DNA of 46,896 nt from Desulfomonilia bacterium (GCA_050014195.1 JBEKDT010000022.1:1-46896); one strand, 5' to 3'; shown: positions 1 to 28,658, numbered from the stretch's first letter. Notes: generated by a model from the sequence alone, not told the origin. Made by a program: numbers and translations.

Positions 1-127
1 CAGACATACCGCTTTCACCTTAAACTCGTCTGAATACCGATGTGCCTTCCTCGGACCCTTCATCTTTCCCACTTGGACACCTCCTCCTTAGTTAGGTCTT
101 AGTGTCCACTTTTTCTGGGGAAGTCCC
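1..127 (-). mobile_element. Left end of an IS3-family insertion sequence (terminal IR plus start of OrfA), running off the window edge
   Basis: Minus strand from 127 reads GGGACTTCCCCAGAAAAAGTGGACAC (IS3-like IR), then RBS GGAGGAGG and a frame from 63 giving MKGPRKAHRYSDEFKVKAVCL, a typical IS3 OrfA N-terminus. Confidence 0.75.
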
Positions 128-511
128 GATTCCAAAGGATTGTTTCCCATAGTAAGCCTGAAATTCTCCTTCCGGGGTGATCTTAATTCCATATGAGTAG
201 TTCTTAGATTCAAGAACATAAATATCGAAAGCCCGATTGATTATGATATGATCAATCTGAGCTACTTTATCTTCATGTTCAATTCTTAAATCGTGAATGA
301 CAGCCCAGTTCTTTGATCTACCGAAGTAGAAGTCTATGTAGTATGCTGAATCCTGCTCACCATAAGTCCCAGCCCTCATTGCTTTCAGCTCCCTTTCAAT
401 GAGAAATCGTTGTTTGGGAGTAAGGTCCTCATTGAGTAATGATGAAAGTTCTTCTACCTCTGCCTGCTTCTGCTTTGAGTCTATTCGTTTTATAATCATC
501 AACAACTCCAA
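92..511 (-). pseudogene. NERD (nuclease-related domain) protein, 3'-truncated by the IS3 element
   Basis: NERD motifs GE...IHDLRI...QIDHIII...VLESKN; the last residues GTSPEKVDTKT are translated IS terminal repeat. Confidence 0.75.
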
Positions 512-517
512 AGAACT

Positions 518-745
518 CTAATCCGGGTAGAGTAGAGGACCGGGGAAAAAGCGGATAGATTTATTGCGCATTGTCGAACGCAATATGAAAAATAAATGTC
601 CCCTTTTTCTCCTGCTCCATTGGGCCATGAGCCCTTTATAAAGCTCATAATCCTTTTTGCAGAAAAAAGTCTTCTGTCTGCGGTTTCCTCGCTGAGTGAT
701 ATGATGAGGATAGCCAGGTACGATCACTCTTGCTATTCTCGCCAT
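518..745 (-). pseudogene. REP-associated tyrosine transposase (RAYT, Y1/IS200-like) N-terminal fragment
   Basis: MARIARVIVPGYPHHITQRGNRRQKTFF is the typical RAYT N-terminus; HUH and catalytic Tyr absent; similarity ends near 613 at a REP-like repeat. Confidence 0.8.
542..612. repeat. REP/REPIN-like inverted repeat pair
   Basis: GGGGAAAAAGCGGATAGATTTATT ... AATAAATGTCCCCTTTTTCTCC. Confidence 0.6.
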
Positions 746-772
746 TCCAACCTCCCATAAATTTCAACTGCA

Positions 773-805
773 TATCATTTCTTAAAAAACTAGTATGGTG
801 TCCCC
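773..805. repeat. Direct repeat copy 1 (putative RAYT-end motif)
   Basis: TATCATTTCTTAAAAAACTAGTATGGTGTCCCC; near-identical to 5410-5441. Confidence 0.65.
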
Positions 806-851
806 GGATTTCCCTGAGAGGTCATCAACGCACATAGATAGACTCGCTGAA

Positions 852-3800
852 TTAATCATTTGTAATGAATTTCCGAATCGCCGTCATGACCTCATCATCA
901 GCCATCTCCGTAGCCAACCACTCTCGTTTCGTCAAACGTACCCACTCTTTCAGTTGTTCGTCTGTCTCTAGTGCAGGCGGTGGGAATCGTGTTGCGAGAA
1001 GTCGGGATGGACGCCTCAGCCTCACGCCAAAACGGAACCAAGCAAGCGTCTCCGGTGAATCGCAACCGTACTTGATGCACATAGGTAGGCTTGCAAGTGC
1101 AAGGGGCACTTCACCATCTAAGATTTGCTCGGCGATAGCCAAAAAACCACCTGCGATCAATGACAGTGATGACCATGCGCCTTGTGATACGGAAAGCGCC
1201 TTGGGGAGTGGCTTTCCGGCTGTTCTATCATAGGAAATGTCCTCAACTGGATCACCCGTTATTATGCTGCCGATTTCAAGAAAACTTTTCCCTGCCATCC
1301 AAGCATCCAGAGGATCATTAGCGGTTTTCCACGCTTCGGCCCATAAATCAGGTGGCTCCCAATCCAGTTTACGATTATTGAAAAGAGCCTCCATATCTTC
1401 CACGATCTTCTTAAACTGTTTAGAAATATACTTTAGTTCCACTGCAGGGAGTTGTGTCTTAAGCAACCCGGGTGGTATGTGAACAATTAGTCGCAGAAGT
1501 TCTTCCCGCCACTCGACAACACTCCAGCGGTTAGACTCCTCCGGTAACGCCGAACGCACTCGCGCCCATGCCTTACTGATTGCCAGTGTTAGGAAAAAAT
1601 CTAGTCCTGCGCGTTGTGCTGCAACTGTCAGCCAAACCGGCGCGCCCGTTTCTGCTATGAACTCTGTCCCCATTCGCACTAGATGGTTTGCGTTGTCCTC
1701 TGTTACCTCAGCGGCACCCGCCTTGCGCCGGAGATAAGCGGCATAGGTTCGACGTAGAACTTGCGCCGGCTCGATCTGATTGTCATCTCCACCGGCCAAC
1801 AGAGACACGACCTGAAGTTCGATGTCGTCTGCTTGGTCGGACCGCAAAGCATTCTGGCAAACCGAATCGAGAAACGCGGTCAGACCGCTTTGAACCCTTA
1901 CCGAATCATCGCTCTGCTGCAAGTAGTCAACCTGCTCTCGGGCTCGTTTGACAGATTCAAAATCGTCAAATGCAACTGGCTTATCCGGGATCGCAATGAC
2001 GAGACCTTGGTTGGCGAATCCAGCGCGCCCAGCGCGCCCTGCCGCGTTGAGCAGTTGCGAAAACTTCCTGCGCTGTACGATTGTCTGGTCTTCGCCTCTC
2101 GTATCACCAATCCTTGATCCGGCGATAATGACTGCAATCGCAGGCAGATTTAGCCCCTGTGCAAGAGTTCCTGTTGCAAACATAATCGGCACGCTGCGTG
2201 CTCGGAACATCAACTCGGTTGCGATTTTCTCAGGTTCAAGCATCAATGATGTGTGAACTGCGACTCCCGAATCGAGAAGCGAGAAAACCTGAGACTCACA
2301 ACCCAATTCATATTCTGACAATGTCCGGCACACAGAAACGAGATTAGGTCCAGCTGGGAGGGTGTCTAACAATTGGTCAGTGAGCCTTACTTTCTTGCCG
2401 TTTGAGAAAGGATAGTGCTTGCTTGCCGGTGTGAAGATCAGTGTTTGAATTCCAGATTCTGCGAGCGTTGTCCCTAGGCTAGTTGCACATTCGTTGACCC
2501 AACTGTCTCCTTCCCAGAAGTATTTCCACTTGCCCAACTGTTTTTTACGGAATAGCTTAAGAGGCGCTTCACAGTTGACTGGTGTTATGGCGTAGTCTTG
2601 CATTTCCTCTGACTGCCAAGCTCCTTGTAAGCTCACAGCGAGCGCGCATTCTGAATTAAAACCAAGCCTTTTGATTTTTTCTGAGCGTGTTTGCAGCTTC
2701 TCTATCGCGTCCTCTGCGCGCTTTTGAATAGAGTTATTGTCTAATCCGAGCACGGCTCTTAGAGTTCGCGTGGGTCGCCATCGAATCGTAACCGCTTTGC
2801 TGCTGTTTCCCGTCGCGTCCGCTAGCCATTCTGCTAACTCTTCGGGATTCTGAACGATGGCGGACATCAGTAAAAACCTACAATCTGGTGCACGGATCAT
2901 CAGTTGCGTCACTACAAGTTCAGCAACCGGCCCGCGTGAAGAGCCCGTGTCGCCTAGCAGATGGCACTCGTCAAACACAACAAGTCGGCAGTCCTTGAAT
3001 GTGTCTGGTGACAACCGAAGAGCGAGGGCACATTTTTCTGGAGTCATTACGGCGACCGAATTCGTGGGCATCTGATCAACTCGTTCCGCGGTGAAGATCG
3101 AGTATTCCTGATCCCCAATGAACGCAAATATCTGTGTCTGCAGATCCTTCAGAGCTTTTCTAAGATCCCCGCGTACTTGCTCAGTCAGGACGTTGGTCGG
3201 AGCTAGATAGAGTACCCATCCACTGTATACCGCCTGCGACACAGCCAACTCGGCTACAAACGATTTACCACTCCCTGTCGGCATAGCTACGACAGCGTGC
3301 CTTGTATCACCGAGTAGACATTCCCTGACGTATTCAAATGCGGATGGCCACAGAACCGGGCGCCCAAGTGAGTCGGAATCACCGGTTGCTCTTGCCCTCA
3401 AGTACCTGCGATACAAAAGCAAGTCGCCATTCGGCGGATGTGGCATAACATGGATGAGTGCTCGTTCCCCTATTGCCGGGAAGCATAGCTGCATCAGCGT
3501 AGCCAGATGAAAGATTCGGCTGAATTCGTAGCCAAGCAAGCTATTGTCGGCGTTTGCATCTTCGATGGAGAGCGCTTTGATTATCGCATCGAGTCTCCCC
3601 GTTGCTGACGAAAGTCCGTCTTGTTCACCACCGAGCCATGAAGCGAATATGATCGCCGCCTTACCAAGTTCGACGAATAGCCTACTAACCGTGTCCGCTT
3701 CGAGTTCTTGCGGAGTAAGTTCATTGGCAAATGAGAACGAGTAGTCAAAGTCGCTGCTCAGCGACGGAAACAACGCAAGACGACATAGCCTTTCAAGTCG

Positions 3801-4289
3801 ATCGAAACACCACGCTGCCGCCCGATCGACCAACAATGCATCAGCGTCCGCCACAGGTGGAGCCAAGCTCAGTACACCGGAAGCGCAGGCATCGTATCTC
3901 GAGAATAAGTAGAGGAGTGATGATTCCACTCTAGCGATTCGTTCAGCCGATCGAATTTCATCAACCTTATCAACGCCGCTGACATCGCGTACAGCCGCCA
4001 GATAATCTGCCATTAAGGCAATTGCTTCAGCGGCCACGAATCCTGCTGCCTGACGCTCAGAATATTTACGTCCTTCGTCAAGAACTACATGGTAGATCAG
4101 AGTGTTGGCTAAGCGTCGAAGAAACGACTGTACTTTGCCAAACTCGTCAATCCCGTCAATCGTTCCGTTGACGCGGTACTGGATAATGGCAAGATATGCA
4201 GACGACAGCGCGCGAAGGGCGTTATCACGAATCAATCCGTCAAACTCTGGGAAATCCTGGAAAAGTGATCGCGCGTAATCGTCAAACAT
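852..4289 (-). CDS. hamB: Ski2-like DEAD/DEAH-box helicase, Hachiman HamB-like
   Basis: Motifs MPTGSGKS, DECH, LMSA, ATGTLAQGLNLP, AGRAGRAG; starts 7 bp after a HamA-like nuclease gene. Confidence 0.7.
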   Translation of the reverse strand: MFDDYARSLFQDFPEFDGLIRDNALRALSSAYLAIIQYRVNGTIDGIDEFGKVQSFLRRLANTLIYHVVLDEGRKYSERQAAGFVAAEAIALMADYLAAVRDVSGVDKVDEIRSAERIARVESSLLYLFSRYDACASGVLSLAPPVADADALLVDRAAAWCFDRLERLCRLALFPSLSSDFDYSFSFANELTPQELEADTVSRLFVELGKAAIIFASWLGGEQDGLSSATGRLDAIIKALSIEDANADNSLLGYEFSRIFHLATLMQLCFPAIGERALIHVMPHPPNGDLLLYRRYLRARATGDSDSLGRPVLWPSAFEYVRECLLGDTRHAVVAMPTGSGKSFVAELAVSQAVYSGWVLYLAPTNVLTEQVRGDLRKALKDLQTQIFAFIGDQEYSIFTAERVDQMPTNSVAVMTPEKCALALRLSPDTFKDCRLVVFDECHLLGDTGSSRGPVAELVVTQLMIRAPDCRFLLMSAIVQNPEELAEWLADATGNSSKAVTIRWRPTRTLRAVLGLDNNSIQKRAEDAIEKLQTRSEKIKRLGFNSECALAVSLQGAWQSEEMQDYAITPVNCEAPLKLFRKKQLGKWKYFWEGDSWVNECATSLGTTLAESGIQTLIFTPASKHYPFSNGKKVRLTDQLLDTLPAGPNLVSVCRTLSEYELGCESQVFSLLDSGVAVHTSLMLEPEKIATELMFRARSVPIMFATGTLAQGLNLPAIAVIIAGSRIGDTRGEDQTIVQRRKFSQLLNAAGRAGRAGFANQGLVIAIPDKPVAFDDFESVKRAREQVDYLQQSDDSVRVQSGLTAFLDSVCQNALRSDQADDIELQVVSLLAGGDDNQIEPAQVLRRTYAAYLRRKAGAAEVTEDNANHLVRMGTEFIAETGAPVWLTVAAQRAGLDFFLTLAISKAWARVRSALPEESNRWSVVEWREELLRLIVHIPPGLLKTQLPAVELKYISKQFKKIVEDMEALFNNRKLDWEPPDLWAEAWKTANDPLDAWMAGKSFLEIGSIITGDPVEDISYDRTAGKPLPKALSVSQGAWSSLSLIAGGFLAIAEQILDGEVPLALASLPMCIKYGCDSPETLAWFRFGVRLRRPSRLLATRFPPPALETDEQLKEWVRLTKREWLATEMADDEVMTAIRKFITND

Positions 4290-4296
4290 TAATTGA

Positions 4297-5181
4297 TCAC
4301 TCCTTTATGGAAACGTATGACCTCATTATGTAGCTAATTGCATCGAACATTTTGCGTGCTTCCGGTAGCGACAATGGAAACAGGAACTTCCGCGATACAG
4401 GAATTGCAAGTCGATTAAGCGATTGTCGTTTTTGTGTCCAACTACATGCGTGCTCACTATCACAACAGACAAACGGCAGATAACTGCGTTCGTCCCGCCA
4501 GAAAGCACCTGACAACTTCTCCTTAGCGTCTTCATCCAACGCGCTACGGAGTTGATTTACTACCGACCGGATCTCAATATCCCTGACGCCTGCGTCGATT
4601 TCACCTAGTTTGTTCGACGCATCTGTGATGCCGCGTGACGGATCGTCGAAGTAGGCTTTGCATTCTCCAGCGGATATTCCGAGATTGCTAGCCTCATAGA
4701 TTGCGATGACATCAAGTCCGTGATCATGCACGTCATACTTGATGCTTGTTTTCACCAGCACGCGACCGCTTGGGTGGAAATCGGGATCAAATCGCGACAA
4801 GTGAATCAACATGTGGCTAATGCTCTCCCAAATCCACGGATCGCGAACCATCTTCTTGAACTCATCATCGACATTGTGTTCGCCAATGACATTAATTACA
4901 TCACGTTCAAGCTCGCGCGACATTTCTGCTTCTCCAAACAGCGCCTTGCGGATTTGTAGATTCGCCTCGATAATTTGTGCGATTGCAGAGACCAGATAGA
5001 TTGCGGTTGCTTCTAGCACCTCCTCACTGTCGAAGTTTTGCACAACTAGCAATGAATGCGATTCACACTCGGTCAGTTCGATGGAAAGACGGAGAGCCAG
5101 TGTCTCAAGAGACGTGGTAATGTCCTCATGCAAGTAATACGGGCCACGGTAACTTGAACTGATTACAAATGTATTGGGCAT
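4297..5181 (-). CDS. hamA: HamA-like (DUF1837-type) PD-(D/E)xK nuclease
   Basis: K...HGLDVIAI...GECKAY nuclease-type motif; directly upstream of a Ski2-like helicase. Confidence 0.62.
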   Translation of the reverse strand: MPNTFVISSSYRGPYYLHEDITTSLETLALRLSIELTECESHSLLVVQNFDSEEVLEATAIYLVSAIAQIIEANLQIRKALFGEAEMSRELERDVINVIGEHNVDDEFKKMVRDPWIWESISHMLIHLSRFDPDFHPSGRVLVKTSIKYDVHDHGLDVIAIYEASNLGISAGECKAYFDDPSRGITDASNKLGEIDAGVRDIEIRSVVNQLRSALDEDAKEKLSGAFWRDERSYLPFVCCDSEHACSWTQKRQSLNRLAIPVSRKFLFPLSLPEARKMFDAISYIMRSYVSIKE

Positions 5182-5334
5182 CTCAAAGGCTCTCCGCTAT
5201 TGAAAGCAATGATTCTTGTTGTTGCACTGGCACATTATGACCCTAGCTTTCCTCACCACAGGACGCTCAAAGTATTCATCTCATGGATAATAGAAGAAAC
5301 CTTGCGATAAATTTCATACCGAACGGCGCACTTC

Positions 5335-5410
5335 AGGGAGAAATCGGGGATGGTTCACATTAAACTAACCCCAAACTTATAAAATATGAACCCATCCCCA
5401 GTTTCTCCCT
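5335..5410. repeat. ~27-bp imperfect inverted repeat (REPIN-like)
   Basis: AGGGAGAAATCGGGGATGGTTCACATT ... AATATGAACCCATCCCCAGTTTCTCCCT. Confidence 0.7.
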
Positions 5411-5441
5411 ATCATCTCTTAAAAACTTGTATGGTGGCCCC
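5410..5441. repeat. Direct repeat copy 2 (putative RAYT-end motif)
   Basis: TATCATCTCTTAAAAACTTGTATGGTGGCCCC; matches 773-805. Confidence 0.65.
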
Positions 5442-5459
5442 CGTCCTAGGAAGACCAGT

Positions 5460-6560
5460 CTAGGTATGAATTAAATTCATTGATGACAACACGGGATAAT
5501 GGTCCGAGGCTCTGATTATATGGTCATGAATGACCCGATTACCATGCAATTCTTGTCCTATAGCAGGATCAAGGGAAAGAAATTTGGGCCCCGCAAATAT
5601 ATAGTCCAAAGTCAATGTCGGATCATTACTTATACCTTTAGCTTTAGTACCATGCCCATATCGACTATTTTTCGCTGGAACAGTATCAATAAAATTTATC
5701 CTCTTGATATACTCGTATTCTGCAGATTCTTCTGTGAAATTAAAATCGCCTGCTATAATCCAAACAGGTGAATGCCGTTTAAACGTTTCGTCCTCCTCTT
5801 CCTTTCTTTTTTCGCCTCGCTCACGATATCCGCTCTGTCGCCACGAGTTGTAACGTGAAACAATTCCGTTAAAGATAACATCCAATTGGTTCATTCTGAT
5901 TCTCACTGCTAATGCATCAGTTTCTGGCACACCTTCTCTCTCCATCATTAGAGTAGTCAGATGCACATTGATAACGAAAACATCAAGCGGCTGTTGACAA
6001 GGATTGCCTGTTCCTGCAGGCATACCGTCCGGCCCGTAAATGAAGTGAGCGACTAATGCTGCACGCGGCTCAGTGTTGCGGTCACCGAAATAAAGTCCTG
6101 AGTCCAAATGAACAAGTTCGATAAAATGATCTTCATTGGTTCCAGGTCGTTGCTGATCAGCTTTCGATAAATCCCAAACAGGAAAATGTGGAGCATCACT
6201 CTTAATCAAAAACGCGTTTCCTTGCGCGAAGTAAGTCTTAGGATGCCAATCACTATCCTTTTTTATCTTGTTCCACTTCGCCTTAGAGGAAAGTATGTCG
6301 CTATCAATGAGAGGAAAGGGAAAATAATTATAACCTGGAATTTCATCCAACAAATCTCTTATTTTATCGTCTGAAGGCTCCCTATAGCGAACAATCTCCT
6401 GCAGTACAACCACGTCAGGTTGAGGTCCCATTTTACGATCTGTCAATATTGTGACGAGCGCTTGGTTGATATCCTTGCGTATCTTTTCCCTCTGATCCTT
6501 TGTCTTTTGTTCAAGGACCTTAGCCCCCCCAATGTTCCAATTAAGTACTGTGAATAGCAT
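5460..6560 (-). CDS. Endonuclease/exonuclease/phosphatase (EEP) family protein
   Basis: Full motif set NWNI, DVVVLQE, NVHL, AGDFN, LDYIF, SDHYPV; ATG overlaps the upstream kinase stop (TAATG). Confidence 0.9.
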   Translation of the reverse strand: MLFTVLNWNIGGAKVLEQKTKDQREKIRKDINQALVTILTDRKMGPQPDVVVLQEIVRYREPSDDKIRDLLDEIPGYNYFPFPLIDSDILSSKAKWNKIKKDSDWHPKTYFAQGNAFLIKSDAPHFPVWDLSKADQQRPGTNEDHFIELVHLDSGLYFGDRNTEPRAALVAHFIYGPDGMPAGTGNPCQQPLDVFVINVHLTTLMMEREGVPETDALAVRIRMNQLDVIFNGIVSRYNSWRQSGYRERGEKRKEEEDETFKRHSPVWIIAGDFNFTEESAEYEYIKRINFIDTVPAKNSRYGHGTKAKGISNDPTLTLDYIFAGPKFLSLDPAIGQELHGNRVIHDHIIRASDHYPVLSSMNLIHT

Positions 6561-7705
6561 TACCTTTCCTCCTGTAATGGAAGATTTTTTATTTCGTGTC
6601 CATGTGGTTGAATCTTGAATGGAATCTCACGATACACCCCCCGCAACTCTTGTCGCAACACAGCCAACGACTCGGGATCATGACCGAATACGAGTATGCC
6701 TCCACCTCCTCCAGCACCTAAAGGAAATACAACACATTCTGCTTCGCGAGCAAATCCCTGCAGTTCTTTTGCCCCATCCATGTATGCAGGACATAAAAGG
6801 CTACGCACTTCTTGATAATCTTTAATAGTTTCACGAACATCATTCCAATGATTTAGCCTCAGTCCCTCGCGAAATCGATAGGCAATATCCAGTTTTAGTT
6901 TATGAAGTCTGTATCCCTCCTGTTGATACAGAGCATTCACCCAGATAGAATTTACATCTGTACTGGCTCGCGTAATTCCAGAATGAAAGATGGCAAAGCG
7001 TTTTTCTAATTCCTCATATCGCTCGTGGGGTACTAATTCGCTCCGAATCGATGTACCATACCCAGTGTTATCGATTTTGGGAATTCCCCAGGGAAACCAA
7101 ACATAGTCGCATACTCCGCCAAATATAACATTAGACTGCTCCTGGGTTCCGGTGATGCTTACGCCATAATCCTGTTCAAGTCGTGATGCCATTGAAACGA
7201 GCTGAAGAGAAGTGAAAGGCCTGCCCGCCAGCTCGTTAGCTAGTATACATACACCGGTTGTTGCCGACGCTGATCCACCGAGACCAGATGATTGAATTCC
7301 GGGACGAAGATTATGCAACACGAACTTAACTCCTCTTAGCCCGAATAACTCGAGGGTTTTCAGTAACCAATTCTGCTTGGTTGGCAAGACTTCACCGGGT
7401 TTTGCAAAAACTTCTGTTCCATATTCAATAGACTGGACTGCGATCAATTCAGGGTTAAACGGTTCTGCGTATATTTGGGTGCCAATATTTATAGTTATAC
7501 CCACAGTTCTTGGTAACATACGGGTCCATTCCATTGCTTGATCGGCGGTTAAATCATTTGGTATTGATGGCAACGACCAAAAAGACTGTTGAAATTCTCG
7601 TAAATCCAAACTGGAGCCGGGACCGTCGATTCGATTGTAAGCCAAAACCGTTGGTAAGCTCTTCCTTCTTGCAGCTGCGATCAACAAGCTATGAAGATCT
7701 GACAT
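6560..7705 (-). CDS. GHMP-family kinase, distantly HddA/sugar-phosphate-kinase-like
   Basis: NRIDGPGSSLD, ATP loop PGIQSSGLGGSAS, GTQEQ, LGAGGGG; RBS GGAGG upstream. Confidence 0.85.
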   Translation of the reverse strand: MSDLHSLLIAAARRKSLPTVLAYNRIDGPGSSLDLREFQQSFWSLPSIPNDLTADQAMEWTRMLPRTVGITINIGTQIYAEPFNPELIAVQSIEYGTEVFAKPGEVLPTKQNWLLKTLELFGLRGVKFVLHNLRPGIQSSGLGGSASATTGVCILANELAGRPFTSLQLVSMASRLEQDYGVSITGTQEQSNVIFGGVCDYVWFPWGIPKIDNTGYGTSIRSELVPHERYEELEKRFAIFHSGITRASTDVNSIWVNALYQQEGYRLHKLKLDIAYRFREGLRLNHWNDVRETIKDYQEVRSLLCPAYMDGAKELQGFAREAECVVFPLGAGGGGGILVFGHDPESLAVLRQELRGVYREIPFKIQPHGHEIKNLPLQEER

Positions 7706-7747
7706 GGTTTAGTAACCTCCGAATGCTATCACTGTGAATCTACCTGG

Positions 7748-7803
7748 TCCTAACATGCCGGTCATCAGCCGCCGTAGGCCGTCGGCTAGAGTGACTGATG
7801 AGG
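7748..7803 (-). other. Degenerate integron attC-like recombination site
   Basis: Minus strand CCTCATC-AGTCA-CTCTAGCCGAC...GCGGCTGA...GTTAGGA; 56 bp, L boxes pair with two extrahelical bases, 6 bp after TIR stop; R'' lacks perfect AAC. Confidence 0.55.
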
Positions 7804-7809
7804 TGGTAC

Positions 7810-8846
7810 TCAATCGGACAAGTCTCCTACGGTTGTGTTTGCAGTGTACAATCTTGAAATTTCTGCGATGGCCGTGGCTTTTGTCGATCCTTCTTCCTGT
7901 GACTTTCGATACATCACCTCAAAGTCACGAATCCCATTCTGAACTTTCTCTGAATCATACTTTACTATGGTCATCTCATAACCAGGCGTGTGGTGTAGCT
8001 TATAACCTTCAATAACAAGGCGTTCGCTTATGATGTACTTATTTGGACCAAGGTAACGACCGATGAGGTAGTCAATGTTCTTCTGTTCAATTGCCTCTTG
8101 CATCCAATTTAGAAGGAATCTGTAACGGGGCGCCAGATGCTTACTCAAATATGCGCGTACTGGCCACAACAAAAGACTTAGTCGTGCATTTGGTAGATCG
8201 GCCATTTTTAAGAGCAGCCGCTTCTCCTCAAGCAACAGTCCAACGTACTCGTCAGAGTGGTAGTCATCGACCCTGTATAGCGGATCGCCGGAAGTTGCGA
8301 TGGAAGAGAAGGCTGCTTGTACCCGGATGATCAAGTTTGACGGACGTTCCTCAAGGAGTTTCTCGAAGACTCTAACGATGAATTTTGTTCGCTCGATTTT
8401 TCCAGTTACGACCTGGTCGAAGTTCACATCGTTGATGATGCTCGACCCAAAGGCGTAACCGTGTAGAGCTGAAACAAGGCGGTCAATCGCCTCGAAAGGC
8501 CTTGACCAGTCGAACAACGAATAAGCTTGAAGACCAGCCAGCATTCCTATCGGTGATACATCGCTCTCTATGGCGAGAGGCCATATGTGTTTCTCGTGCG
8601 CAAGGGCGTAGCCGACTTCCTGATTAACCCACGCCGATTTAGCAGATGTGGAGGTCAGCAATACCAAGAATACGTCAGCATCCCTGATCATCTTCTTAAG
8701 TTTTTCATCGAATGCCAACCCAGCTCTAAGCTGACGATCAATGAGGCACGTGATCCCATTTGTCTTGAGAACATAAGAGAGGAAGTGTGCGACGGCTTCA
8801 TCGCGACGGCTTCATCGCGACGGCTATATGATATAAATACTTTCAT
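7810..8846 (-). pseudogene. TIR-domain protein with C-terminal PLD-like/DUF5919-like domain, frameshifted by a 14-bp duplication
   Basis: True start MKVFISYSRRD at 8846; removing one repeat unit joins it to the 7810-8718 ORF (340 aa) with catalytic SAWVNQEVGYA; C-terminal domain call is tentative. Confidence 0.85.
8789..8825. repeat. Tandem repeat, 14-bp unit x2.6
   Basis: GCGACGGCTTCATC GCGACGGCTTCATC GCGACGGCT. Confidence 0.95.
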
Positions 8847-9279
8847 GGCTCAACAGTTCCTTATAGAATACATTTACCACCCAATTAATATACTGCACTT
8901 TTGTTGTATATCACTATAATTATCCGATGCACTATTGCAGTATATCCGGATATTGGGTTTAAGGCATTATACTGTTATAGATATATAGACACATAAATAC
9001 CTGATAGTAAGTTATTTCAACTGAATAGCCCAAACTCCGTGCCTGAAGGGTGGATTCGTGGAGTTGTATGGGGCCCTCCTTCAAGAGCGGCAGGCTGTTG
9101 TCAATCCATTTCACGGCTGTGCTGCACGGGATAAGACTGTATTTTATCAGGAAGTCAGGAGCATTGTCAAAGAAAAGGGGTTGTGGCTGGACCGTTCCAG
9201 CATGTCGCTGTCTTCTGCGAGACTGTTGCATAGGTGTTTTGGTTGTCGTTCCCGGCCTACTCCCCCGAAGCATACATCC

Positions 9280-9309
9280 CACGGGCAAGGCCTGCGGCCT
9301 TTGCCCGTG
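9280..9309. repeat. GC-rich palindrome, REP-like
   Basis: CACGGGCAAGGCC-TGC-GGCCTTTGCCCGTG. Confidence 0.5.
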
Positions 9310-9373
9310 CCACCCATTCGAAAATTGTCCCTGACGTTATCGGGGAGTGGGGACCCAGGAACCATGATAAATA

Positions 9374-9401
9374 CTGGATTCCCGCTTGAAGCGGGAATGA
9401 C
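9374..9401. repeat. ATTCCC-N-GGGAAT type palindromic repeat
   Basis: CTGGATTCCCGCTTGAAGCGGGAATGAC. Confidence 0.6.
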
Positions 9402-9514
9402 GGAGAATGACTTATACGACAACCTTACTCAGAAGAGGGACTCGGGAGATTGCCCGAGGTATCTCCCCTCGAAAATCCCGCTTGATTTGTCCTGAAAAAT
9501 TCTGCATATATTAG

Positions 9515-9529
9515 TATTGTAATACAATA
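9515..9529. promoter_or_regulatory. Putative GntR/FadR-type operator
   Basis: Palindrome TATTGTA-A-TACAATA matching TNGT-N3-ACNA, just upstream of the acyl-CoA ligase gene. Confidence 0.55.
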
Positions 9530-9556
9530 ATACATATTGCATTGGAGGTTTCTGCC

Positions 9557-25235: not shown

Positions 25236-25430
25236 AAAGATCTTCCCCTATAATTTATAAGCCAGCTTTGTTACCATAGCATCTGCACCTCAAAAGGAGT
25301 ATAGGTATATTCCATGCATTATCTGTGATTTTGATCCTATGGTCAATATGAAGTTCTAAGGGGCCGCCTTCCTTAACATTAACTCGGTACGTGTAAATTT
25401 TAACCTTTGCCGATAAAGGAGGGCGCAACA

Positions 25431-28400
25431 ATGAACTGTTGCATGATATGCGGCAACCTCGTGGATGTATCCGACCGATACTGTTCCCAGTGCGGCTCAT
25501 GCCTATCGCCATCGACGCAGGTAGCTGAATACCGCTTCATAACTATCCTCTGTACCGACCTGAGCGGATACAGCCTTCTGTCTGAAAGACTCGACCACGA
25601 GGAACTTCAGGAGCTCATGGGCAGTGTCCTGAGTGAGATTACCCGGATCATCACTCGCTTCGGCGGTACCATCGAGAAGTATATCGGTGACGCCGTAGTG
25701 GCCATCTACGGCAACTCCAAGGCCAGAGAGGATGATCTTCTCAGGGCCATCCTGTCCGCCCGGGATATCCACAGGACAGTGGAAGGACTGAACGTGCTCA
25801 TGCCAAGGAGCTGCAACATCCACATGAGCATGCACACCGGTATAAACACGGGTGAGGTGCTTATGGATTCCGGCACGACCCGCCACTCATCGCACGGTAC
25901 CCTGGGAAAGCCCATCAATATTGCATCCAGACTGTGTGATATAGCATCAAGGGGGGAGATCTTCATCGGGGAGTCGCTCATATCAGAGGCAATGCGGTAT
26001 TTTCACCTGGAATGGATGGGCAGGAAGATGCTCAAGGGTTTCAGAACCCCGATCCATGTGTACAAGGTTATGGATGAGAGGAAGATTCCTTTGGCCGTGC
26101 ACCGCTCCGGTGGGGTGACCTCGCCGCTGGTTGGGCGTGAACACGAGTTGTCCGAGCTGTTATCCAGGGCACGCAAGCTTCAGTCAGGACAAGGCGGTGT
26201 GCTCAGCATCATAGGCGATGCCGGTGTCGGCAAAAGCAGGCTCATTGAAGAGTTCAAGGCATTGCTTAATGATGGAGTTGCATTCGTAACAGCCACCTGC
26301 CACGATCATGCAAGCTCCACCCCGTACTTTCCTTTTACGAAACTCATATCTTCAATCCTGGGAATCTCTGAGACGGATAATACCTATAAAAGTATTTCCC
26401 AGGCATTAATTCAATACGGTCTACCCACGGAGCATGCAACTCATCTTACTTTCTTCAGGGACCAGGCCTTTTCCTTAAGATCCGAATCCCCGGATACCCT
26501 CAAAGAACAGATCAGTGATGCCTTTGTTTGGCTGCTCAGCTCGAAGGCTTTGGCCCGGCCTACCATTATCTGTATTGAGGACATCCACTGGGCGGACCAG
26601 AGCACCCTTGATCTCCTGGCCTATCTCATTCACAATTGGAAGAAGTCCTGGCCCTGTCTGCTGGTACTATCTCATCGTCCCGGATCAATGCCTGCCTTAT
26701 CAAGTAGCTTCATAAGCCTGCGTGAACTTAGTGAGTCGGAAGTGGGCAGAATGCTCACACTCATGTTTGAAGCACTCGCAGTGCCTGAACCGGCCGTGCA
26801 CTCACTGACCGATGCCACCGGAGGCAATCCATTCTTCATAGAGGAGCTGGCAAATTACCTCCTGGAAAAGGGAGCCGATCTAGTAGGTCATTGTCTAACG
26901 GGCTTCCTGAATGATGTGCCTACGACCCTGTACGGACTCATCTCTTCACGGCTTGATCATATGGAACCGATTGCCAAGAAGATGCTTCAGGAAGCGGCCC
27001 TCATCGGCAGGGGCTTTTCAGAGGACCTCTTGGCCTTGGTATGCTCAAATCCTGATTCCTTAAAAGAGGGATTGATCGAATCAGTCAAGCACGGCTTCAT
27101 CCATCCCACGGGTGAAGGGGAATACATCTTCAAGCATGATATGACCCGTGATGTGGCGGGCAGAACCCTCTTGAAGAGAGAGAGGGTCAGGCTACACAAA
27201 AAAATCGCCCTGGCCTTGGAAGACAGAGCCGGCTCATGTCCCGGGGATCATGCCGGAGAGCTCGCCCATCACTACGCCGAGGCTCAGAATTACATCAAAG
27301 CAGTATACTACCATATGGAAGCCGGTAAACGCTGCCAGTCAACAGGTGCATGGGTTGAGGCCGGCTGGCACTTCTCATCGGCAGAGCGCTGTGTGCTTGC
27401 AGCCCCGGCTTTTCCTGAAGTTGAAGAAAAGGTTGTTGAGATACAAGAAGGGATATGGAGATGCTGCCGGGTGTTCAATCCGGCCCGGGCTATTACCGCG
27501 CTGGAGGCCCTAGCCGATAATTACCGGCTTAAAGGGCTTAAAGAAAAAGAAGCCTTTTGCTCCATCAGACTTATCAACCTCTATTCCCAAATCGGTTTGT
27601 TTGAAAAGGCCAAAGGGTACTACACCCATGCGTTAAGCATCATCGGGAATGATCCTGTTTTGATTGCAGCGGCACACACCGCCATTGCCTACACCTACAC
27701 CTTTCTCGGAAAGCAAAACGATGCACTACGTCTTCTGGATAGTTCCCGACCTTCACTCGAGGCATCGGACCGGTTCCTCTTTACCGTCAATACCCTTACC
27801 ACGTTGGCTGCATGCGTATGGAAGGGTGACATGAAGAGTGCACGCACCTGGTATGATCGGACCAAGGTGTTCAGTGGGGCATATATGGATATCGATCTTA
27901 TGGCGGACATATGGCTCGCCCATATCTGCTGTCTCGAAGGCGACTTTGATGAGGCACGCAGGGTTTTAGGCGAGGTCTCATCGCGGGAGAAAAAGCTGGG
28001 TAAGCTTGCCGGCGGACTTTCATATTTAAGGATTCAGGGTTCCATCTATTTCCGCTCCCGGTATTTCGGAGATATTAGGGGTGCCCGATATGACTTACAT
28101 GTATTTAACGCCTTAGGGGCGGACATCCATAACTCAGGTTCGTTAAAGGATTTGTATCGTGCATGGATTGCGCTGGAAGAAGGCAAGCCCCAAGAAACAA
28201 AAGACCTTATTCATGCAGCGCTACCCGGCCTGAGGGAGGGTATTGCCAACCGAGTGCCCTATGCACTGAATGCCCTTGCCGAGGCAAATCTCCTATTAAA
28301 CGATCTTAGTGCAGCACGCCAAATTGCAGAGGAAAGCATAACCTGGAATGAGCATTGCGGCAATGCCGACCAGCTCATCTGGGGCTTAAGGATTTTTGCC

Positions 28401-28658
28401 GAGATCTGTATCTCACAAGGGGAATACATTACCGCACGCAAAGCCCTCTCCCGAGCATACTCTCTTGCTCGAGCGTGCAAGATGAAGCCGCATCAAGCCT
28501 GGATCATTGCCTTATGGGGCAATCTCCTCAACAGGACCGGCAAGCACGCAGAATCGGCCATATGCCTAGGTAAATCGCTCAAGCTCTGGAAAGAGATGGG
28601 CAATCCTATCCAGGTGAAACGGGTTGCAAAAGAACTAAACCGTACCGGATATGCATGA
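25431..28658 (+). CDS. Zinc-ribbon + class III nucleotide cyclase + STAND/AAA ATPase + TPR protein
   Basis: Two CxxC, TDLSGY, EKYIGD, NIASRL, GDAGVGKS, IEDIHWAD, GGNPFFIEE, helical repeats. Confidence 0.88.
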   Translation: MNCCMICGNLVDVSDRYCSQCGSCLSPSTQVAEYRFITILCTDLSGYSLLSERLDHEELQELMGSVLSEITRIITRFGGTIEKYIGDAVVAIYGNSKAREDDLLRAILSARDIHRTVEGLNVLMPRSCNIHMSMHTGINTGEVLMDSGTTRHSSHGTLGKPINIASRLCDIASRGEIFIGESLISEAMRYFHLEWMGRKMLKGFRTPIHVYKVMDERKIPLAVHRSGGVTSPLVGREHELSELLSRARKLQSGQGGVLSIIGDAGVGKSRLIEEFKALLNDGVAFVTATCHDHASSTPYFPFTKLISSILGISETDNTYKSISQALIQYGLPTEHATHLTFFRDQAFSLRSESPDTLKEQISDAFVWLLSSKALARPTIICIEDIHWADQSTLDLLAYLIHNWKKSWPCLLVLSHRPGSMPALSSSFISLRELSESEVGRMLTLMFEALAVPEPAVHSLTDATGGNPFFIEELANYLLEKGADLVGHCLTGFLNDVPTTLYGLISSRLDHMEPIAKKMLQEAALIGRGFSEDLLALVCSNPDSLKEGLIESVKHGFIHPTGEGEYIFKHDMTRDVAGRTLLKRERVRLHKKIALALEDRAGSCPGDHAGELAHHYAEAQNYIKAVYYHMEAGKRCQSTGAWVEAGWHFSSAERCVLAAPAFPEVEEKVVEIQEGIWRCCRVFNPARAITALEALADNYRLKGLKEKEAFCSIRLINLYSQIGLFEKAKGYYTHALSIIGNDPVLIAAAHTAIAYTYTFLGKQNDALRLLDSSRPSLEASDRFLFTVNTLTTLAACVWKGDMKSARTWYDRTKVFSGAYMDIDLMADIWLAHICCLEGDFDEARRVLGEVSSREKKLGKLAGGLSYLRIQGSIYFRSRYFGDIRGARYDLHVFNALGADIHNSGSLKDLYRAWIALEEGKPQETKDLIHAALPGLREGIANRVPYALNALAEANLLLNDLSAARQIAEESITWNEHCGNADQLIWGLRIFAEICISQGEYITARKALSRAYSLARACKMKPHQAWIIALWGNLLNRTGKHAESAICLGKSLKLWKEMGNPIQVKRVAKELNRTGYA

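Follow-up and report, generated by a model that had tools for sequence, protein, structure and literature searches.

What might a kinase of the GHMP superfamily do when it is encoded together with a phosphoesterase of the EEP family, between a TIR-domain gene and a Hachiman-like defence system? This question is raised by positions 5460 to 8846 of a DNA stretch from a Desulfomonilia bacterium (GCA_050014195.1 JBEKDT010000022.1:1-46896). We analysed the stretch at its full length of 46,896 nucleotides (the window), which is an entire contig of a 4.2-Mb genome. A first-pass annotation, made from the sequence alone, had proposed that kinase and phosphoesterase form an undescribed anti-phage module, preceded by the TIR gene. 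Following this up, we tentatively regard the cassette, at somewhat less than an even chance, as a candidate new TIR-associated small-molecule module, that is, an accessory layer of TIR-based anti-phage immunity.

The kinase (381 amino acids, PF00288, motifs intact) is encoded at 6560..7705 and the EEP phosphoesterase (366 amino acids, PF03372) at 5460..6560, both on the minus strand. Gene calls and Pfam agree with the three co-oriented genes (TIR, kinase and EEP) that the first-pass annotation had placed here, next to hamAB-like genes. The overlap it had pointed out is a single base shared by the kinase stop and the EEP start (TAATG), with AGGAGG ahead, an arrangement by which the EEP is predicted to be translationally coupled to the kinase. 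If metagenomes are scanned with the EEP as seed, the kinase is found directly upstream in 47 of 63 testable loci, and after the removal of near-duplicates in 56 of 81; about 12 EEP loci with sufficient upstream sequence carry no kinase. Regarded from the side of the kinase, an EEP gene occurs in only 14 of the 80 species-level GTDB genome loci. The kinase-EEP pair is a real, conserved and mobile cassette, and the firm link claimed for the two genes is borne out by their co-occurrence across EEP loci elsewhere. A prediction of a complex between both proteins gave a score of 0.00 and was used neither for nor against the pairing.

The kinase matches PF00288 (GHMP_kinases_N) with 34.3 bits compared to a cut-off of 22.3, which assigns it to the GHMP superfamily. 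Its SGLGGS and GAGGGG motifs are invariant among 23 homologues, as are the residues G136, S139, G141, G143, G144, S145 and A146. We retrieved 618 homologues, the best 120 of which are 61-82% identical to the kinase and come from many bacterial and archaeal phyla; nothing similar was found in E. coli genomes. The structural model (pLDDT 88.9) has the GHMP fold, as confirmed by structure search, with the best PDB matches being fucokinase 9iip (E 1.1e-15), the heptokinase WcbL (4usk, 4usm), galactokinase and 4n3o. The latter is an HddA-like kinase from Campylobacter, with a value of 2.5e-9 for the kinase profile against the PDB. By its modelled structure the kinase belongs to the class of anomeric (C1-OH) sugar kinases, of the fucokinase or heptose-7-phosphate-kinase type. 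Membership in the HddA equivalog itself (NCBIfam NF049969) was rejected, as the match reaches 16.1 bits at a cut-off of 600 and the island contains no GmhA, GmhB or HddC.

The phosphoesterase reaches 52.3 bits for PF03372 (cut-off 24.5) and all its fold matches are EEP proteins, so that membership in this superfamily is clear. The residues invariant in 25 of its homologues include N9, E55, D272, N274, D353 and H354, which we take to be the catalytic set of EEP enzymes, in line with the earlier claim of intact catalytic motifs. There are 373 EEP homologues, and the subfamily is small and sharply bounded with 198 representatives at E<=1e-3 among 1.84 billion proteins. The model (pLDDT 83.8) shows an EEP fold with no specific nearest relative (TM-score 0.41-0.52): TDP2, nocturnin, CNOT6L, ANGEL2 and mannose-6-phosphatase score alike, and APE2 and DNase1L3 are also listed. 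As no nearest subfamily emerges, the fold search cannot separate a nuclease from a phosphatase. Searched against PADLOC-DB v2, the kinase matched 0 families and the EEP only Cas6b at chance level (0.0065), in agreement with the earlier statement that no named system with this composition is known. In one locus from Methanobacteriota (L049:8309-10252, also L159) a PGM gene and the kinase are followed by a 647-residue protein carrying this EEP as its C-terminal third; its N-terminal part of approximately 400 residues has no Pfam domain.

The argument for a role in immunity arises from the genes found next to the cassette and from the domains fused to the EEP. To count the former, a census was made of 100 observable flanking slots at the 81 non-redundant EEP loci, 62 of which have at least one observable flank. 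Five lineages (the window, L007, L088, L115 and L127) have a TIR_2 gene in a cassette-adjacent slot, with L087, a 93-95% identical relative of L088, counted together with L088. The TIR gene is located upstream in the window; in L007, L088 and L127 the order is kinase, EEP and TIR, co-oriented and with short gaps, and in L115 the TIR domain is encoded divergently, upstream of the kinase on the opposite strand. If 0.75-2 genes in 1000 encode TIR, 0.075-0.2 such cases would be expected; the corresponding Poisson p, a rough value not corrected for relatedness, is 2e-8 to 2e-6. No TIR was detected by a local TIR hidden Markov model in 66 kinase-only loci, which served as control. In a quick tree of the EEP the loci next to TIR genes are spread over four distinct positions.

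The same EEP subfamily also occurs in one polypeptide with a TIR domain. Two loci, L130 and L132, encode TIR-EEP fusions with the TIR domain at the N-terminus (TIR_2 5e-29 and 6e-30); the fusion is represented by seven clusters at 90% identity, and a second cluster (P0333) is less than 50% identical. Single further cases are a fusion with a nucleosidase-type PNP_UDP_1 domain (P0324, 636 amino acids) and one with an XRE-type helix-turn-helix (HTH) domain (P0378, 495 amino acids). In L132 (3316-6424) a CBASS cyclase (PADLOC 5e-136) and a Cap15-type effector with two transmembrane segments are followed after 96 bp by the TIR-EEP fusion, which is either a second effector of this CBASS or a separate system. 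Other pairs are flanked by a type I restriction endonuclease and methyltransferase (L096), or have as neighbours AbiEi (L108), a capP-like gene and an HTH gene (L086) or a KAP NTPase (L153). Genes that could handle nucleotides or their sugars are likewise found: a NUDIX gene directly upstream in L044, a phosphoribosyltransferase directly downstream in L099 and an MTAN/PNP-like gene in L088. The triad of kinase, EEP and TIR in L007 (7588-16690) is located between a ParB-like gene and genes for HNH and the small and large terminase, and it is the sole prophage-like carrier of the cassette among the loci; at other loci integrases, transposases and a group II intron reverse transcriptase are close by.

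The link to the TIR domain had been considered the weaker one in the first-pass annotation, since an attC-like site was thought to separate the TIR gene from the kinase. It is instead the best-supported part of the proposal, given five adjacent lineages, two fusion clusters and the defence neighbours. The spacer in question (7706..7809, minus strand) contains an imperfect hairpin. It has no second copy in the genome, and its folding does not surpass that of shuffled sequences (z -0.78); on these grounds the attC or integron reading was rejected. Pfam scans revealed no integrase domain in the window; an attC model was not among these tests.

What did not withstand analysis is the integrity of the TIR gene of the window (7810..8846, minus strand). 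The TIR domain as such is confirmed: in the 302-residue open reading frame (ORF) the TIR_2 match covers profile positions 40-122 only (2.4e-10), and in the whole-genome scan of the open frame it extends over positions 6-122 with 65 bits. A tandem duplication of 14 bp (8797-8824) puts the start ATG at 8846 out of frame with the remainder of the gene. It is shared by all four metagenome copies of the island, which are identical, and a search of 164 loci gave no allele free of the disruption. The catalytic-type glutamate is retained (E34 of the 302-residue ORF), and W30 and E34, the tryptophan and glutamate of the active-site region, are invariant in four cassette-linked TIR proteins. The C-terminal stretch of approximately 220 residues has no domain assignment. 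The C-terminal parts of the cassette-linked TIR proteins differ from each other, and only the TIR proteins of the window and L088 cluster, at 27% identity; as these domains are not one family, there is no dedicated TIR protein of the system. The genome carries three TIR_2 genes.

How could these enzymes work together? The locus would be a decayed copy of a three-gene unit of TIR, GHMP kinase and EEP, residing on a horizontally acquired island beside a Hachiman-like system. Kinase and EEP would act on a small phosphorylated sugar, with the EEP filling a slot that is held elsewhere by HAD, trehalose-phosphatase-like or ARMT1-like phosphatases beside the same kinase family; it is this slot that makes a small-molecule phosphoesterase the most likely role of the EEP. 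In the TIR-linked copies the substrate may be the ribose-phosphate product released by a nucleotide N-glycosidase, either ADP-ribose (formed from NAD+ by TIR) or ribose-5-(poly)phosphate (formed by PNP-type domains). The kinase would phosphorylate the free anomeric hydroxyl and the EEP would then trim a phosphoester. The outcome could be that a signal is made or matured, or that the product is drained and the depletion of NAD+ or nucleotides becomes irreversible. Two observations suggest this order of events: the EEP is fused to TIR and to PNP domains, whose reactions both yield a ribose phosphate in which the anomeric hydroxyl is free, and the class of the kinase phosphorylates the anomeric hydroxyl of sugars carrying a distal phosphate. 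As the TIR gene is frameshifted, at most the two-enzyme part, kinase and EEP, would still work in this organism.

A more specific version of this mechanism seems unlikely to us at present. It holds that the kinase is an ADP-ribose or ribose-5-phosphate 1-kinase which, together with the EEP, turns the sugar leftovers of TIR (from NAD+) or of PNP-type domains (from ATP or NMP) into a bisphosphate. This bisphosphate would be a new immune signal, or a dead end by which the phage is kept from rebuilding NAD+, and archaea would use the same chemistry in ribose- or hexose-phosphate metabolism. There is a certain resemblance to the NAD+ reconstitution pathway NARP1, which reportedly consists of a PRPP-synthetase-like ADP-ribose pyrophosphokinase and a nicotinamide ADPR-transferase, is phage-encoded and rebuilds NAD+. 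In both cases the ADP-ribose left by NADase defences would be modified at its anomeric carbon by an ATP-dependent enzyme. The cassette differs from NARP1 in being composed of a GHMP kinase and an EEP, and in being encoded by host or island without a transferase; no relative was found in IMG/VR.

Several observations weigh against a module of TIR-based immunity. The TIR gene of the window is a pseudogene in all five copies seen. Most pairs have no TIR nearby (only five lineages do, out of the 62 non-redundant EEP loci with an observable flank), and a defence-type neighbour is present within two genes at only about 13 of these 62, a raw rate without matched background from many contigs that are short. 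The TIR-EEP fusions have no kinase in their vicinity, which shows that the kinase is not needed for the link to TIR. No relatives came to light when IMG/VR was searched with the profile of the kinase, which argues that the cassette is not typically phage-borne. Conservation at 60-80% identity between phyla is more than is usual for a defence gene.

The remaining counter-arguments concern the metabolic surroundings of the kinase family, and they form the basis of the main rival explanation. According to this, the cassette is a purely metabolic accessory: a hexose or heptose phosphate would receive a phosphate at its anomeric carbon from the kinase and lose the distal one to the EEP. This follows the logic of HddA and GmhB and would provide a sugar 1-phosphate for the synthesis of nucleotide sugars or compatible solutes. 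The vicinity of TIR and Hachiman would then merely reflect that foreign genes accumulate in the same islands. The nearest folds and sequences (fucokinase, heptose kinases of the WcbL/HddA type and galactokinase) are in line with this idea, as is the high sequence conservation across phyla. In about 35 Methanobacteriaceae loci (including L010 and L017) the kinase gene is located behind an OtsA-like GT20 gene, and the facing operon contains GT20, a PGM/GlmM-like mutase, a sugar-1-phosphate nucleotidyltransferase and a trehalose-phosphatase (T6PP). A role of a GHMP kinase in a trehalose-type locus of Methanobacteriaceae seems to be undescribed, as far as a limited literature search goes, which found nothing on it. 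In eight loci from Woesearchaeota or Methanosarcinales an HAD phosphatase of the beta-PGM family follows the kinase. One locus from Woesearchaeota (L072:5028-8772) encodes a fusion of a sugar-1-phosphate nucleotidyltransferase (NTP_transferase) with the kinase, followed by a beta-PGM-family HAD and PGM/PMM; this fusion is an FKP-like bifunctional enzyme. The kinase sits between GPI and glucokinase in L065, and in L067 it is followed by an ARMT1-like phosphatase. PGM/PMM genes flank the pair or the EEP in L049, L102, L107 and L109, ROK kinases do so in L021 and L133, and epimerase or GMP genes are found near some bacterial pairs.

The kinase of the window is approximately 60% identical to archaeal kinases from such hexose contexts, which argues for the same, probably hexose-type, substrate. 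Considering that in sugar-phosphate chemistry this kinase family is combined with phosphatases that can replace one another, the EEP would most simply be another phosphatase of this kind. A prevalence of homologues in sugar loci had been named beforehand as a finding that would speak against the anti-phage proposal; it applies in part, namely to the archaeal kinases, which are found mainly in trehalose, PGM and NDP-sugar contexts. What the metabolic explanation leaves unaccounted for are the TIR-EEP fusions in two clusters less than 50% identical, the PNP-EEP fusion, and the presence of TIR in 5 of 100 slots, where about 0.1 would be expected, compared to 0 in 66 kinase-only loci. It further has to cope with an island in which no nucleotidyltransferase, glycosyltransferase or sugar gene was found, and with the lack of the pair in 36 genomes of the same family. 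We therefore consider a purely metabolic role possible but rather doubtful.

Another explanation keeps the connection to TIR and reverses its meaning. Kinase and EEP could be a host-protective or regulatory partner that removes ADP-ribose-type products or returns them to metabolism, or else silences a signal made by TIR, and so limits self-damage in a way comparable to the ring nucleases of type III CRISPR systems; in the absence of TIR the pair would serve the general salvage of ADP-ribose or ribose phosphate. The links to TIR, PNP, NUDIX and phosphoribosyltransferase genes fit this explanation just as they fit an accessory layer of TIR-based immunity. That the pair is intact while the TIR gene of the window is broken is consistent with a function which is harmless or useful on its own, and the majority of pairs does stand without TIR. 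An off-switch fused to the very enzyme it reverses, as would be the case in TIR-EEP, would be odd, however, and the hexose-type contexts of the kinase family are a further argument against it, so that we judge a protective role to be decidedly unlikely. That the EEP is a nuclease effector of the DNase I, ExoIII or TDP2 type, with TIR, PNP and HTH as co-effectors or targeting domains and the kinase as regulator, is highly improbable: TDP2, APE2, DNase1L3 and CNOT6L are among its many fold matches, the HTH-EEP fusion P0378 exists and multi-effector fusions are common in conflict systems, but these matches are unspecific (equally nocturnin, ANGEL2 and mannose-6-phosphatase), small-molecule phosphatases occupy the EEP slot beside the same kinase family, and GHMP kinases are not known to act on nucleic acids or to regulate nucleases.

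With an accessory layer of TIR-based immunity remaining the preferred explanation, we compared the cassette to known systems. The pathway to GDP-D-glycero-alpha-D-manno-heptose, with HddA/WcbL and GmhB (and HddC), likewise combines a GHMP anomeric kinase with a phosphatase. The kinase of the window is only 15-17% identical to HddA/WcbL structures, phosphatases of the GmhB type are HAD proteins whereas that of the cassette has the EEP fold, GmhA and HddC are lacking in the island, and the cassette pair is linked to TIR domains. FKP (fucokinase/GDP-fucose pyrophosphorylase) provides the top fold for the kinase (9iip) and has an analogue in the nucleotidyltransferase-kinase fusion of L072; its identity to the kinase of the window is 16%, and the latter is a stand-alone protein coupled to a phosphoesterase. 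With Thoeris the window shares a TIR domain with conserved glutamate and partner genes in a defence island, but the partners, a kinase and a phosphoesterase, are not known from Thoeris and the TIR gene is broken. The matches of the TIR protein to ThsB are weak (PADLOC 2e-5, PF08937 2.6e-4) and no ThsA-type effector (SIR2/SLOG, Macro, transmembrane or caspase) was found among the seven island proteins scanned, for which reasons membership in Thoeris was rejected. In a literature search whose scope did not extend to supplements we found no paper joining GHMP kinases to TIR or anti-phage defence, and passages of PMC7159879 mention neither GHMP nor EEP domains. As far as PADLOC and the literature go, no named system appears to match the composition of kinase, EEP and TIR.

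The cassette is part of a low-GC island that comprises the first 9.4 kb of the window, with a GC content of 0.42-0.46 across positions 5001-9000 compared to 0.47-0.60 in the remainder. Its order on the minus strand is TIR, GHMP kinase, EEP, HamA-like protein, HamB-like helicase and NERD ORF. The neighbouring two-gene unit, separated from the EEP by 278 bp and lying outside the cassette, resembles HamA and HamB of Hachiman. It consists of a HamA/DUF1837-like protein of 294 amino acids (4297..5181, minus strand) and a HamB-like DEAD/DEAH helicase of 1145 amino acids (852..4289, minus strand; DEAD and ResIII domains). The helicase scores equally with HamB (PADLOC 6e-45) and PDC-M23B (2e-46). The smaller protein has no Pfam or PADLOC match, and its assignment comes from the DUF1837/HamA clusters of the ESM Atlas (feature score 0.97, TM-score 0.86). 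To call the cassette a neighbour of Hachiman, as had been done, is thus reasonable. Among the other loci a HamA-like gene was found beside the cassette only in the four identical copies of the island.

The island ends with a non-coding boundary at 8850..9540, from which ordinary housekeeping genes, as judged by the Pfam domains downstream, and a higher GC content take over at 9542. The boundary of 691 bases contains dispersed REP-like repeats and has 34 matches in the genome itself. Two short dispersed repeats (8882-8977 and 9277-9317, the second a perfect GC-rich palindrome) bound the island, and copies of both also flank another TIR_2 gene of the genome (G000 contig C3, 204505-204789, region 203218-205474); TIR genes of this genome may occupy repeat-bounded cassettes. 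At the opposite end, and still within the island, a short ORF with a NERD domain is found at 92..511 on the minus strand (PF08378, 1.5e-13). It spans just positions 2-72 of the 111 profile positions and has an ORF of 75 amino acids immediately upstream (both within 92-745), so that the gene may have been truncated or split at the end of the contig; four metagenome assemblies are likewise interrupted at this point or close to it. The debris of mobile elements that had been assumed for this region amounts to this ORF and the REP-like repeats, as no transposase or integrase domain was detected by Pfam in 1-9500. The absence of sugar and lipopolysaccharide genes, by contrast, was confirmed with Pfam for the window. 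A promoter and terminator scan returned fewer sites than shuffled sequences. A search of 36 genomes from the same family gave neither a relative of the kinase (0 of 36) nor the island, and we conclude from the former result that the kinase is an acquired accessory gene in this genome. Further downstream, among housekeeping genes, a protein of 1083 amino acids with adenylate/guanylate cyclase, AAA_16 and TPR domains is encoded at 25407-28658.

TIR domains have a central part in the immunity of bacteria, plants and animals, and the fate of their NAD+-derived products is an active question. The recurrence of a kinase and a phosphoesterase beside TIR, or of the phosphoesterase fused to TIR and PNP-type domains, points to enzymes that process TIR products. 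If this is true, TIR immunity would gain a new enzymatic step, and an activity could be assigned to the sharply delimited EEP subfamily; should the kinase indeed act on ADP-ribose or ribose 5-phosphate, an enzymatic layer of nucleotide-depletion immunity not known before would come to light. A metabolic role would still provide a useful annotation, namely a new HddA/GmhB-like route with an EEP phosphatase. If real, the cassette would represent a new variant of TIR-based immunity, and the copy in the Desulfomonilia bacterium a decayed one, with the TIR gene frameshifted and kinase and EEP intact.

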